From positions 1 through 39,455 of the forward strand of contig DASWCL010000292.1 in NCBI GenBank assembly GCA_036390135.1: a stretch of DNA of 39,455 nt, written 5' to 3'. Below, one piece after another: positions 24,487 to 28,549 of the stretch. This DNA is from Candidatus Binatia bacterium. GTDB lineage: Bacteria > Desulfobacterota > Binatia > UBA9968. Below the pieces are notes generated by a model. The model searched no databases. It saw only the letters and a program-made list of their open reading frames with translations, and had not been told where the DNA came from. Position 1 is the first letter of the stretch, and each line of letters begins with the position of its first letter. The translations under genes and the position numbers were made by a program.

Positions 24487-24501
24487 TGGCACGAGGGTTG
24501 C
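24487..24501 (+). promoter_or_regulatory. Sigma-54 (RpoN) type -24/-12 promoter
   Basis: TGGCACG-AGGG-TTGC at 24487-24501 matches the TGGCACG-N4-TTGC core exactly. It lies in a 450-bp ORF-free AT-richer region, about 160 nt upstream of the ATG at 24663. Confidence 0.55.
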
Positions 24502-24662
24502 CCTTACATCAATTCGGCTCGCGCACATAGTGTCGTGAGCGGGAAAAATCGACGATTTTGAGCGTAAGCGATGATCAAGGTGATTATTTTTCAGGCGTGT
24601 AATCTTATGCGATTTAAAACGTCCAATGAATTGAAAGGATTAACGGACGAAAAGGAGGTTTT

Positions 24663-24953
24663 ATGATTAGAGCATTCAAAACACTAATTATGGGAAGCGT
24701 GATTGCCGGGTCGTTGTTGACGGTGGCCGTGCCGGCTATGGCGCGAGACTATTGGCATTGGTCGGAACGTCAATCGAACTGGGAGCGTCGAGCGGACTTG
24801 CGTAGCGACTATCGCGATTTGGCCGCGGCAAGGCGCCAGCTTGACTATGATCGCGCGCACCATGCCAGCCGTCGCCGCATCGCGGCGGACATGGCGCGCA
24901 TTCGTGATATTGAAAACGATATTCGCGCTGATCGCTACGCGTACAGACGCTAA
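24663..24953 (+). CDS. Small secreted Arg/Asp/Trp/His-rich protein (module A), unknown family
   Basis: 96 aa. Strong AAGGAGG RBS, Sec-type signal peptide MIRAFKTLIMGSVIAGSLLTVAVPAMA, and a mature ~69-aa module paralogous to the following ORF. Confidence 0.7.
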   Translation: MIRAFKTLIMGSVIAGSLLTVAVPAMARDYWHWSERQSNWERRADLRSDYRDLAAARRQLDYDRAHHASRRRIAADMARIRDIENDIRADRYAYRR

Positions 24954-25191
24954 TGCCGTTGGTTCTGCGTCTCGCGATTTTGATCATCATTATGATTGGT
25001 CGCGCTCGCGCTATGAGTGGAACAGACGAGCGGATTTCCGCAATAATCGTGAAACTCTAGAGCAGCTGCGGGCGAAACGCGATTACGACGCAACCCATCA
25101 CGCCAGCCGGAAAAAGATCGCGGAAGACAATCAAGCGGTTGAGAATCTCTACAACGACATGCACGATCGCAGAGGCGGTTGGAGATGGTAA
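24841..25191 (+). CDS. Small Arg/Asp/Trp/His-rich protein (module B), paralog of 24663..24953, overlapping it out of frame
   Basis: The C-terminal 72 aa (RDFDHHYDWSRSRYEWNRRADFR...DYDATHHASRKKIAED...) align with module A (RDYWHWSERQSNWERRADLR...DYDRAHHASRRRIAAD...). Candidate starts are TTG 24841 (AAGG 7 nt upstream), ATG 24847 and ATG 24862, all inside ORF A. The overlapped segment encodes a signal-peptide-like stretch, RRTWRAFVILKTIFALIATRTDANA. Confidence 0.5.
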   Translation: MTMIARTMPAVAASRRTWRAFVILKTIFALIATRTDANAVGSASRDFDHHYDWSRSRYEWNRRADFRNNRETLEQLRAKRDYDATHHASRKKIAEDNQAVENLYNDMHDRRGGWRW

Positions 25192-25211
25192 GGCCGCTAT
25201 CAACGGCAAAT

Positions 25212-25243
25212 CGCCTGGCCGTCGAGAGCGCGACGGCCAGGCG
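25212..25243. terminator. Bidirectional terminator-like hairpin between convergent genes
   Basis: Perfect 13-bp GC-rich stem: CGCCTGGCCGTCG (25212-25224), loop AGAGCG, CGACGGCCAGGCG (25231-25243). U-tracts are weak on both strands. Confidence 0.55.
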
Positions 25244-25280
25244 CCCTATTAAAGTTTGAGTCGCCGGCGCCGCATCGCGA

Positions 25281-27485
25281 TCAAACCATCGCCGCCTTCA
25301 CCCGTTCCGGCGTGAATGGCACGGTGCGCAGACGCGTGCCGGTGGCGTTATAAATGGAGTTGGCGATGGCAGCGGGGATGGCGCTTGTCGTCGCTTCGCC
25401 GGCACCGACCGCGGGCTGATCCGGGCGGTTGATGAGTTCTACAATGACATCGGGGATTTCGGGAAACTTGAGGATCGGATAGAGAGTCCAATCGAGACTC
25501 GTCACCATCGCGCGGTCAAACTTCACTTCTTCTTTCAATGCGCGGCTGGTCGCTTGGATAACGTTGCCTTCGATCTGGTTTCTCAGTCCGTCGGGATTGA
25601 TGATCAGTCCGCAATCGTGCGCGACGATCACGCGTTTCACCCGCACTTGGCCGTCGGCAGGGTTCACTTCGACATCGGCTATCGCCGCGACATAAGCTTC
25701 CGTGCGGTCATAGCGCACAAACGCTACGCCGCGTCCGCTCTTTACTGCTGCCGCTGAAGACTGAGGCCGATTCGACCAATCGGCGCGTTTGGCCGCAGCT
25801 TCCAATACCGCTTTGGCGCGGGGATCGCCGAGATGGCGCAGGCGAAATTCCACCGGGTCGGCGCCGGCCGCAATGGCCAATTCATCCATGAACGATTCAT
25901 TGGCGAAAGTATTTTGCGGCGAGCCAAGACCGCGCAACGCGGAAGCGCGCAGCGGACTCGATTGTAACCAGTGCACCATCACCCGGTTGTTTTTAAAATT
26001 GTAGGTGTGATCGGCGTTGCGATCGGCGCCCGACTGATTCGGTGTTCCCGGCGACATATTTGTGAGCAAACCGGCGAGTAGGCTGCCGGCGCTGCCGTTG
26101 GGTCGGCTCGAATGCGTTGGTGTCCAGCCGTGGAAGTCCCATGCCACCACGTTGCCCTGCTGGTCCAAACCGCCGCGCACCTCCATGACCATCGCCGGCC
26201 CGAGCGGCTCCCAAGCGTGCTCATCGTAGCGCATCCACTGCACGCGCACGGGTTTGGCCACGGCTTGTGAGAGCAGCGCGGCATCGGCAGCCGCATCATC
26301 CGCGCCATTGTGTCCGTAGCAGCCGGCGGCCTCGACATAAACAACTCGAACATTGGCCGGAGAAACTCCGATCAATTGCGCGATCGTCGGACGTAGCTGA
26401 TGGGCTCCCTGGGTTGCCGACCAGATCGTTGCCTCGCTGCCTTTCACATCGGCGACCGCGCACGATGGCCCCATGGAGGCATGCAGCTGATACGGCCAAC
26501 GGTAAGTTGCCTGAAAAGTTTTAGCTGCGGCTGAAAGCGCCGCCTCGACGTCGCCGGTATTGGCCGGCGGCTTGTCGTTGCTCGGGATTTTTTTCAGCGC
26601 ATCGAATAGCTCGTTCATGGGTGGCAGCGTTTGCTCGCTCTTCCAAGTGATTTTGAGCTCGCGGGCGGCGCGAATCGCCTGCTCTTCGCGCTCGCACACG
26701 ATGCCGACAAAGGCGTCTTTGACGACGATTTTCACCACACCGGCAATTTCTTTGATCGAAGCTTCGTCGACGCTGGTTAATTTGCCGCCGACCGAAGACG
26801 GCCGGATCACCCGACCGTGAAGCATTCCCGGTAGACGCAAATTCTGCAGGTAGAGGTGTTCACCGCTAATCTTCGCAGGAATATCGACGCGCGGCACCGC
26901 TTGACCGACGAGTTTGTATTCGCTGGGGGTTTTCGGTTTGACCTTGCCGGTGATCTCACGATTGAACGCCATGCCGCCGAGCAACTCGGCGAAGCTTATT
27001 TTTTTCTTGGCGTCGTCGTGGGCGATGATCATGCTATGGGCGACGCGCAGCGATTCGGCCGGCACAGATAATCGGCTCGCCGCCAGCGATAACAGCGTCG
27101 CCTTGGCTTCGGCAGCAGCTTGACGCAGTTGGCTGCCGCCGCGCTTGATCGTCTGGCTGCCGAACGTGGGCGCCTGATCGACGGTGTTGGCGGTGTCGCC
27201 TTGAATCCAATTAATTTTCTCAAAGGGATGATCGAGCTCCTCGGCGACGATCTGGCGCAGAGAGGTGGACACGCCGGTGCCCAGCTCGACTTTGCCGGTC
27301 ATCACGGTGACCATGCCGTCTTTCTGAATAATGAGCCATGAATCGAGTTGGTTCGGCGGCAGCGGCCCGCCGGAAGCTCGCAACGCCGGCGCCCCTTGTG
27401 CTTCCGCATCGAGCGGAAAGCCGAAGGCGACAATCAGGGCTCCGGTTGCCTTAAGAAATTGTCGGCGGGTGACATTGAGGCTCAT
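25281..27485 (-). CDS. Xanthine dehydrogenase/aldehyde oxidase family molybdopterin-binding subunit (IorB-like), Tat-exported
   Basis: Trimmed to the ATG at 27485. Twin-arginine signal MSLNVTRRQFLKATGALIVAFGFPLDAEA. The 734-aa length and overall pattern are typical of isoquinoline oxidoreductase beta-like subunits. Confidence 0.85.
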   Translation of the reverse strand: MSLNVTRRQFLKATGALIVAFGFPLDAEAQGAPALRASGGPLPPNQLDSWLIIQKDGMVTVMTGKVELGTGVSTSLRQIVAEELDHPFEKINWIQGDTANTVDQAPTFGSQTIKRGGSQLRQAAAEAKATLLSLAASRLSVPAESLRVAHSMIIAHDDAKKKISFAELLGGMAFNREITGKVKPKTPSEYKLVGQAVPRVDIPAKISGEHLYLQNLRLPGMLHGRVIRPSSVGGKLTSVDEASIKEIAGVVKIVVKDAFVGIVCEREEQAIRAARELKITWKSEQTLPPMNELFDALKKIPSNDKPPANTGDVEAALSAAAKTFQATYRWPYQLHASMGPSCAVADVKGSEATIWSATQGAHQLRPTIAQLIGVSPANVRVVYVEAAGCYGHNGADDAAADAALLSQAVAKPVRVQWMRYDEHAWEPLGPAMVMEVRGGLDQQGNVVAWDFHGWTPTHSSRPNGSAGSLLAGLLTNMSPGTPNQSGADRNADHTYNFKNNRVMVHWLQSSPLRASALRGLGSPQNTFANESFMDELAIAAGADPVEFRLRHLGDPRAKAVLEAAAKRADWSNRPQSSAAAVKSGRGVAFVRYDRTEAYVAAIADVEVNPADGQVRVKRVIVAHDCGLIINPDGLRNQIEGNVIQATSRALKEEVKFDRAMVTSLDWTLYPILKFPEIPDVIVELINRPDQPAVGAGEATTSAIPAAIANSIYNATGTRLRTVPFTPERVKAAMV

Positions 27486-27532
27486 GTGACGATCCGTCGC
27501 TCTCGTAGGATTCGATTGCACACGGCGCACAA

Positions 27533-28549
27533 TCATCGTCTCGCTCTTTCGGCGAACGTCCAGTCGTAAACGACCTGCGGTTTGACGCTGATCTTTTCTT
27601 TCGCGCGAAACGTGCCCACGGCGACCCATTCTTCGGCCACGGAGTCCGGCACCGTTAGGTCCGGATTATATTGGTCGCGGTAAACCGAGTAGAATCTTTC
27701 AGCAGCAGAATGGTCGAGTTGAAGGAGTTTCTCCAGTAGGCTGACGCCGATTTCCCGTTGGCCTTGCAGAAACAACATCGCTGCGCGCTGGCCGCGCAGC
27801 ACCCGCACGATCTCATCCGGTTCCTTGTCGATCTTTCGCTGTGTCGTGCTCAGGCCGGCAATGGGAATACGGACAAATTCCGCGGTCTCTTTTACGGATA
27901 GGAGGGTCTTGAATCCCTTCTGTTCGGCTCGATATTCGAAAGGGCTGCTGACGACGGTGGCTTCGACGGCGCCGGCGACGAGAGCCGCAAAGCGCGCGTC
28001 AGGGCTACCGGCGATGGCTTGCAGCGTGACATCTTTGTTCGGATCAAGACCATTGCGGCTGAGCAATTGATAAATCGCGAAATCGGCGGAGCTGCCGAAT
28101 GTGTTGATCGCGATCCTTTTCCCTTTCAGTGCTTTGACACTGTCGATTTCCGGTCGGGAAATAATCGCGTAGCCGCTTGACTTGGTGCTTGCGCCGACGA
28201 TCTTTACCGGTAGCCCGCGCGTGGCAGCGCCCGCGATGAAGGGCAAGATCGTAACGTAATCAAGCTCGTTTGCCATCAGGGCACTCAGCATCAAATTAGT
28301 ACCTTGAAACTGAATGTAACGAACCCGAAGTCCCTCCTTTTCGAAGAAGCCGCGTTCACTCGCGATTCGATCCGGCAGCGCGGTCCAAGCCGAGCCGCCG
28401 GTCCAGCCTATATTGATCGCTTTCGGCTCAGCGCCGTTGATGGCGGCAGCTTGACCGATCATTAGAACGAAGAATGAGACAAATGTGACGAAGCGCCGGC
28501 TCACTTTCGAAGCTCTTTTTCTTTTTTCGCTCTCACCCTGCCACCGCAA
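27533..28549 (-). CDS. ABC-type substrate-binding protein, NMT1/THI5-like
   Basis: 338 aa as tracked, overlapping the upstream gene by 17 bp. An alternative GTG at 28504 would begin VSRRFVTFVSFFVLMIGQAAA (signal peptide). The LKGKRIAINTFGSSADF block is typical of COG0715 SBPs. Confidence 0.75.
   Translation of the reverse strand: MRWQGESEKRKRASKVSRRFVTFVSFFVLMIGQAAAINGAEPKAINIGWTGGSAWTALPDRIASERGFFEKEGLRVRYIQFQGTNLMLSALMANELDYVTILPFIAGAATRGLPVKIVGASTKSSGYAIISRPEIDSVKALKGKRIAINTFGSSADFAIYQLLSRNGLDPNKDVTLQAIAGSPDARFAALVAGAVEATVVSSPFEYRAEQKGFKTLLSVKETAEFVRIPIAGLSTTQRKIDKEPDEIVRVLRGQRAAMLFLQGQREIGVSLLEKLLQLDHSAAERFYSVYRDQYNPDLTVPDSVAEEWVAVGTFRAKEKISVKPQVVYDWTFAERARR

Follow-up and report, generated by a model that had tools for sequence, protein, structure and literature searches.

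The two tandem, out-of-frame paralogous modules at positions 24663–25191 of the window (the whole stretch of 39,455 nucleotides that was analysed) are best explained as an intact gene, A, with the relic of a recently 5′-truncated paralog, B, directly behind it; we put the probability of this reading at roughly 0.63. The open reading frame which appears to overlap the 3′ end of gene A would have arisen incidentally, through a 2-nt contraction carried by a minority allele. An earlier note on this DNA had taken B for an overlapping gene with a signal peptide hidden in A's 3′ end. This proposal is not upheld: the frame is broken in 5/5 other contigs, 4/4 B-type relatives from outside the lineage carry a canonical leader, the candidate leader is atypical, and five of the six SNPs in the overlap change a residue of the B frame.

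According to the history which we propose, the ancestral locus would have carried an A-type and a B-type gene in tandem. Both would have encoded small exported alpha-hairpin proteins, with a start and a Sec signal peptide of their own. A deletion in the window's lineage would have removed the spacer together with nearly all of B's leader, leaving the mature module of B 19–21 nt behind the stop of A with no ribosome-binding site, start codon or export signal. In the common (CG)3 allele the module would lie in A's frame behind A's stop and would not be translatable on its own; the relic would be young and presumably still co-transcribed with A up to the hairpin at 25212–25243. Contraction to (CG)2 in the window would then have linked it fortuitously with the +1 frame at the 3′ end of A, and the resulting ORF of 114/116 aa would only look like an overlapping gene. 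We infer that B makes no functional product. The features of the locus are as follows.

24652–24658, forward strand: Shine-Dalgarno-like AAGGAGG of gene A, 4 nt before its ATG, read directly from the sequence
24663–24953, forward strand: gene A, intact, for a predicted exported protein of 96 aa, from ATG 24663 to TAA 24951–24953 (ORF list)
24663–24743, forward strand: putative signal peptide of gene A (residues 1–27), a signal-like leader with A-M-A at its end
24841–24972, forward strand: +1-frame extension, consisting of A's 3′ end and a 19-nt spacer, and holding TTG 24841, ATG 24847, ATG 24862 and a signal-like stretch
24973–24976, forward strand: (CG)2 run, which is (CG)3 in all five other contigs, seen there as a CG put in behind 24972
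24973–25191, forward strand: module B (72 aa plus stop), corresponding to the mature protein of a tandem paralog, without its own ribosome-binding site, start codon or signal peptide
25212–25243, no strand assigned: hairpin with a perfect 13-bp stem, between module B and the convergent Mo-cofactor oxidoreductase gene

Module B lies in the +1 frame relative to A and ends with TAA 25189–25191. In this frame the candidate starts (ATG, GTG or TTG) after the preceding stop are TTG 24841, which comes first, ATG 24847 and ATG 24862, and the ORF overlaps A by 92–113 nt according to the one at which it begins. All these candidates lie inside A, and direct reading of the sequence revealed no in-frame start between A's stop and module B, in agreement with the earlier note. 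The mature part of A is an alpha-hairpin module with a YDxxHHASR turn. Its paralogy with B is clear from BLASTP (37% identity over 97 columns, E 1e-15) and from the blocks W..RR(A/S)D, Y-D-x-x-H-H-A-S-R and I-A-x-D which are present in both modules, each of about 70 aa. A joint alignment of nine A-type and B-type sequences contains 20 invariant columns, and the two modules end at one common column. Thus the description of A as a 96-aa protein with a signal peptide (here a 27-aa signal-like leader ending in A-M-A), followed in another frame by a paralogous module which stops at the equivalent aligned position, was correct. So was the view that these are two proteins and not one, the modules descending from separate proteins as judged from B-type relatives with leaders of their own.

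A further ORF of 35 codons (24953–25060, forward strand) starts in the third frame from the ATG of a TAATG at A's stop and specifies a strongly hydrophobic peptide. It shrinks to nine codons in the (CG)3 form and is probably another by-product of out-of-frame Asp/His/Tyr/Arg codons. The TAATG was also considered as a coupling start for B and rejected, since its frame in the window is the third, and in the (CG)3 form it opens only the nine-codon ORF.

The frame of module B is set by the 2-nt difference at 24973–24976, which we followed in L046 and, over 24500–25300, in Logan contigs of four soil runs (X2, X3, X5 and X7) from four studies. L046, a soil contig with 98% DNA identity to the window, lacks the same leader and has (CG)3 at 24973–24976; there TAA and seven codons precede module B, which shares the frame of A, and the ORF that starts inside A runs into another frame and stops after 73 aa. 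Contigs X2, X5 and X7 have CG inserted behind 24972, and X3, listed as a cluster of substitutions with one missing base, proves on re-alignment to have the same insertion along with the loss of one codon and an Asp>Gly exchange. X2 also has TAA>TAG at A's stop; its contig, which covers 24500–25208, differs from the window only at 24953, at the CG and at 25138. In 5/5 of these contigs B is cut off from its supposed leader and a stop stands between B and A (contigs drop rare variants, and minority alleles within those samples may have escaped notice). The +1-frame extension is joined to module B in the window's allele and in none of L046, X2, X3, X5 and X7. Conservation of the overlap frame in relatives, to which the earlier note had looked for support, was therefore not found: the frame is open and joined to the downstream module in 0/5 contigs of close relatives, and only in the window and in P0079.

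The contracted (CG)2 allele is likewise confined to the window and P0079. Since P0079 comes from another source and has a different SNP background, the allele is probably real and possibly recurrent. The polymorphic tract, which does switch the frame, is only 2–3 units long. The earlier note was right to attach importance to an indel at the junction, the CG insertion changing B's frame in 5/5 other contigs. As one alternative it had named an assembly indel that fuses both modules; the insertion does bring B into A's frame but leaves A's stop in between, so that no continuous two-module ORF arises. None was seen in any contig examined, nor was an intact B leader.

A search with module B (query 24958–25188) gave five proteins. 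Four of them are B-type relatives from outside the lineage, namely P0080 (98 aa, 91% identity to the query), P0081 (97 aa, 82%), P0082 (102 aa, 69%) and P0083 (103 aa, 63%). All four begin with M-K-x-x-K and a hydrophobic leader of 25–26 aa (26 in P0080, 25 in P0081), whose final A-x-A is followed at once by R-D, the start of the module. The fifth protein is P0079 (114 aa), which has the overlap form of the window. Start and leader, present in these 4/4 relatives, are absent from the window, L046 and the four soil runs, and because all the outside relatives have a leader of their own it would appear that this lineage has lost the spacer and the leader of B. P0081 and the A-type protein P0002 are each found on four contigs and share the same longest contig (28788 nt), which fits their being adjacent, separate genes.

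The deletion has been deduced from proteins because DNA of the intact form was absent from the loci found. Among 53 loci from a metagenome scan the sole close relative was L046, which has the truncated form; a contig scan with P0080 produced one weak, unrelated-looking locus, and a search of the genus with module B returned A-type orthologues only. The boundaries of the deletion, and the rooting of (CG)2 against (CG)3, rest likewise on proteins. Module B differs from the intact P0080 at 3/72 residues, and no stops or frameshifts were present inside it in the seven versions seen. With the module intact and so close to P0080, decay is not demonstrated, which counts against the relic reading.

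Elsewhere in the genus, in more distant genomes, a different secreted protein with Arg/Asp/Glu repeats and its own leader is encoded 50–92 nt behind the A orthologue, and downstream of that pair lies the same Mo-cofactor gene. The repeat protein (118–139 aa, with repeats of the type R-N/D-D-R-x-E-L) occupies the position of module B and has no Pfam match in any of the three loci, which belong to other species of the genus.

L007, 1887–2243: secreted repeat protein behind the A orthologue
L008, 1031–1435, reverse strand: secreted repeat protein behind the A orthologue
L009, 1041–1460, reverse strand: secreted repeat protein behind the A orthologue

Gene A is a typical member of an unnamed soil-metagenome family of predicted exported proteins of about 95 aa with the turn YDxxHHASR(K/R)(K/R)IAxD. 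Module B is a member of the B subtype, without the leader which complete members carry. In a set of 5.8 billion proteins A has 78 homologues of 61–151 aa, the best matches being full-length at 94–98 aa, and 71 representatives were found at E ≤ 1e-3 among 1.84 billion cluster representatives. In a panel of 61 related genomes, matches to A occur in 17/30 other genomes of the window's own genus and in 0/30 outside it. The complete members inspected begin with a Sec-type leader. For 83 family proteins the longest stretch free of charged residues within positions 1–40 was determined, and its median, 21, is also the value of A. The hallmark of the family leader, that is, a basic start, about 20 uncharged residues and A-x-A, is found in A and not in B.

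An AlphaFold (AF2) model of A, based upon an alignment of 44 sequences, has a mean pLDDT of 78.8, rising to 94–95 over residues 51–80. It predicts two long helices, 2–65 (the first 27 residues being the leader) and 70–95, joined at residues 66–69 by the conserved H-H-A-S. Neither the A nor the B ORF matches Pfam or NCBIfam, and Pfam gave no convincing match for any of the 44 family members. A sequence search of the PDB with the family profile found nothing, and Foldseek against the PDB gave no significant fold match, only generic helical hairpins (best E 0.67); the likeness to the helical hairpins of FrmR/CsoR, MexA, ZraP and DUF1090 was not significant. The Atlas search produced only unnamed clusters and generic helical hairpins, and Rfam nothing credible at the locus. 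Leader and model together indicate that A is a small exported alpha-hairpin protein. We would guess that it is a periplasmic or envelope helical protein, possibly oligomeric or binding metal via the His-His turn. The family as such, uncharacterised and made up of putative small exported alpha-hairpin proteins from soil bacteria with an invariant His-His turn, is of modest interest.

Two relatives have unusual arrangements. P0134, a distant relative of 134 aa, carries one leader and two shortened modules in a single chain, a natural two-module form; its module type is Q-L-N-x-D-L-Q-H-K-A-S-R-x-K-L-A-x-D-Q-A-x-I-D-Q-I-L. It shows that a two-module architecture exists in nature, but not at this locus, where no double-module fusion is encoded. 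Such chains were found in 0/70 other representatives, and a search for two-module relatives of sufficient length gave 0 matches among 1330 longer candidates, which is weak evidence. P0108 (184 aa) is A-type in its C-terminal 46 residues and resembles an unrelated enzyme in its N-terminal part; a frameshift or a wrong ORF call in its source is the probable cause.

The candidate leader of B ends in A-N-A. A Lys lies in the middle of its hydrophobic core, so that the longest uncharged run is only 8 residues, against the family median of 21. An AAGG stands 7 nt before TTG 24841, where it represents an Arg/Lys codon (AGG, AGA or AAG) which is common at that position in orthologues; no AGGAGG-type site lies at the usual distance before ATG 24847 or ATG 24862. 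In 14/49 family genes the +1 frame stays open for 37 codons or more at the 3′ end. The maximum Kyte-Doolittle value over 12 residues of the +1 frame is 2.49 in the window, the highest of 49 family genes, the medians of the family being 1.25 for the +1 frame versus 0.64 for the +2 frame; a value of 2.0 is reached by only 3/47 other family genes. The +1 frame is open and hydrophobic because Asp, Ile and Arg codons read one base later give Ile, Leu, Phe and Ala codons, and the case illustrates that helices rich in Asp, Ile and Arg, when read in the +1 frame, easily give hydrophobic peptides resembling leaders.

The window's value of 2.49 depends on T-ending codons (ATT, GAT) at all six Ile/Asp positions of RIRDIENDIRAD, which the earlier note had regarded as consistent with constraint on two frames. 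The choice is indeed peculiar, as 0/15 other family genes make it; pooled over those 15 genes GAT accounts for 25/44 Asp codons and ATT for 13/35 Ile codons, and in nine neighbouring genes the shares are 47% and 33%, respectively. In the non-overlapping part of A, ATT is used 3/3 times. The interpretation is another matter: L046 shares the T-ending codons despite its broken frame, so they must be older than the contraction, and the present overlap ORF cannot have shaped them. Codon usage was accordingly discarded as evidence of dual coding, the numbers being too small and the same codons occurring in alleles without the overlap.

When the window is compared with the other haplotypes, gene A shows 14 substitutions, 4 non-synonymous and 10 synonymous. 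The overlap (24841–24953, 113 nt) contains six SNPs, of which 5/6 are non-synonymous in the B frame, one of them removing ATG 24862; in the A frame four are synonymous (TAA>TAG counted) and two non-synonymous. In this small sample of six SNPs there is no sign of constraint on both frames. Module B has five non-synonymous and two synonymous changes, including R>C, D>G and D>E at conserved positions, and also the codon loss of X3; most of these come from one contig at depth 3.5, which may contain errors. The contrast with A in non-synonymous and synonymous changes is not significant (Fisher p 0.16), and relaxed constraint on module B is only suggested.

The substitutions which separate the window from L046/X5 are unevenly spread. 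Fourteen are clustered in gene A (24690–24945), the 100 nt upstream have 0, and module B with the downstream region (24954–25260) has one. The mosaic points either to recombination among strains or to a consensus that is chimeric.

Several other explanations have to be weighed against truncation. One might suppose that the (CG)2 allele rescues B by overprinting, with translation from TTG 24841 or ATG 24847 and (CG)2/(CG)3 acting as an on/off polymorphism; we consider this unlikely. Equally doubtful is the associated idea that A's C-terminal helix, when read in the +1 frame, supplies an unconventional new signal peptide with its cleavage site behind A-N-A. An uninterrupted ORF is present on the different SNP backgrounds of the window and P0079, yet its frame is broken in all five other contigs. 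Its +1 frame is the most hydrophobic of the 49 family genes, helped by T-ending codons at 6/6 positions, but these hydrophobic codons are already there in the "off" alleles and are thus older than the contraction. An A-x-A site is present, preceded by a core with a Lys in its middle and 8 uncharged residues where the family median is 21. TTG 24841, with its AAGG 7 nt upstream, and ATG 24847 are both retained in L046/X5; SNPs in the start region are nevertheless silent in A while they alter the B frame, and one removes ATG 24862. That module B is intact would agree with rescue, but the repeat tracts of known phase-variable genes are far longer than 2–3 CG units, and, to judge from a survey (Palleja, Harrington and Bork 2008, PMC2478687), co-directional overlaps of > 60 bp have a very low prior. 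Were rescue nonetheless real, it would mean the birth of a signal peptide by overprinting caught in the act, with an on/off polymorphism in a soil population.

It is improbable, too, that (CG)2 in the window results from an error of assembly or consensus, in which case the true sequence would be (CG)3, there would be no overlap ORF, and B would still be a relic. The source is a fragmented metagenome-assembled genome (311 contigs, 88% complete), the CG is present in all five other contigs, and the nearly identical X2 contig differs from the window within 24500–25208 only by this CG and at 24953 and 25138. Against this, P0079 encodes the same junction in the same frame though it comes from another source, and a two-base deletion is an atypical short-read consensus error. 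We give very little credence to recoding, whereby a secreted A-linker-B protein would be made through a +1 frameshift near A's stop in (CG)2 or through stop readthrough in (CG)3. The latter allele does have B exactly in A's frame behind one stop, and an intact B has no other route to translation there; P0134, moreover, carries two short modules in one chain behind one leader. Two alleles would, however, need two different mechanisms, and the end of A coincides exactly with that of its single-module orthologues. The stop is TAA in 5/6 DNA versions (window, L046, X3, X5 and X7) and TAG in X2, with T following in each; its identity thus varies and neither form is known as leaky in this context. 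A conserved leaky stop with its context and extension, as readthrough requires, was not found, and in the window's allele B is out of frame. The programmed +1 frameshift which the earlier note had offered as an alternative fares no better. Frameshifting of the prfB type involves a slippery codon before the stop and an upstream SD-like element, but direct reading disclosed no slippery site and no +1 re-pairing at CGC-TAA-T, and the frame relation of B to A in 5/5 other contigs is 0 and not the +1 which a frameshift needs. A hairpin across the junction was tried as a recoding signal and rejected, being weak and no better than shuffles (z −1.69).

The apparent overlap may be compared with known systems. 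In the survey cited above, covering 338 genomes, co-directional overlaps > 60 bp were all judged artefacts, the largest class being downstream genes 5′-extended by a wrong start or a 5′ frameshift (PMC2478687). The present locus resembles these spurious overlaps in being co-directional and > 60 bp, in having a downstream N-terminus unlike that of the orthologues, and in that a 5′ indel decides the frame. It differs from them in that the downstream gene is truly without its own start and leader, no correct shorter start being available, and in that the long ORF exists in a minority allele and is not only the choice of a gene caller. In favour of an overlap the locus had its paralogous modules, an open frame, a peptide resembling a signal and codons of a suggestive kind. 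It may serve as a well-resolved cautionary case, in which a convincing-looking co-directional overlap of 113 nt dissolves once relatives and other assemblies are compared.

Remnants of genes truncated at the 5′ end (pseudogenes) arise by deletions between tandem paralogs. B is like them in that its body is intact while signals for translation and export are gone, in its position directly behind an intact paralog, and in that a frame-changing indel polymorphism is apparently tolerated; it is unlike them in being very young, with 3/72 residues different and no internal stops. Overprinting, in which a gene already present gives rise to new coding sequence in another of its frames, is best documented in viruses and phages. 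The (CG)2 allele would be comparable in that 92–113 nt would be read in two frames, with an N-terminus drawn from the +1 frame of the older gene; unlike such cases, the frame is not conserved among close relatives and there is no sign of selection on the second frame.

The hairpin at 25212–25243 (−34.7 kcal/mol, z −3.94, with 0/200 shuffles folding as well) is likely to be the terminator of the A-B transcript. A simple terminator scan made no call here because no T run follows. Between A and B there is no terminator-type hairpin, and promoter and terminator scans of that interval gave nothing useful. Other contigs of X2 and X5 (321 and 1006 nt) match only about 38 nt at 25190–25227, with five gaps and unrelated flanks; these matches may reflect a short repeated hairpin element or a chance similarity of GC-rich stems.

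The neighbouring genes specify an amidohydrolase, a Mo-cofactor oxidoreductase, an enolase-superfamily enzyme, a dienelactone hydrolase and a substrate-binding protein, and give no functional link to A. The convergent neighbour (25281–27629, reverse strand) encodes a Mo-cofactor-binding oxidoreductase subunit of 782 aa, is syntenic in L007 and L046, and shows a weak match to a twin-arginine signal (E 0.0029, below the Pfam cut-off).
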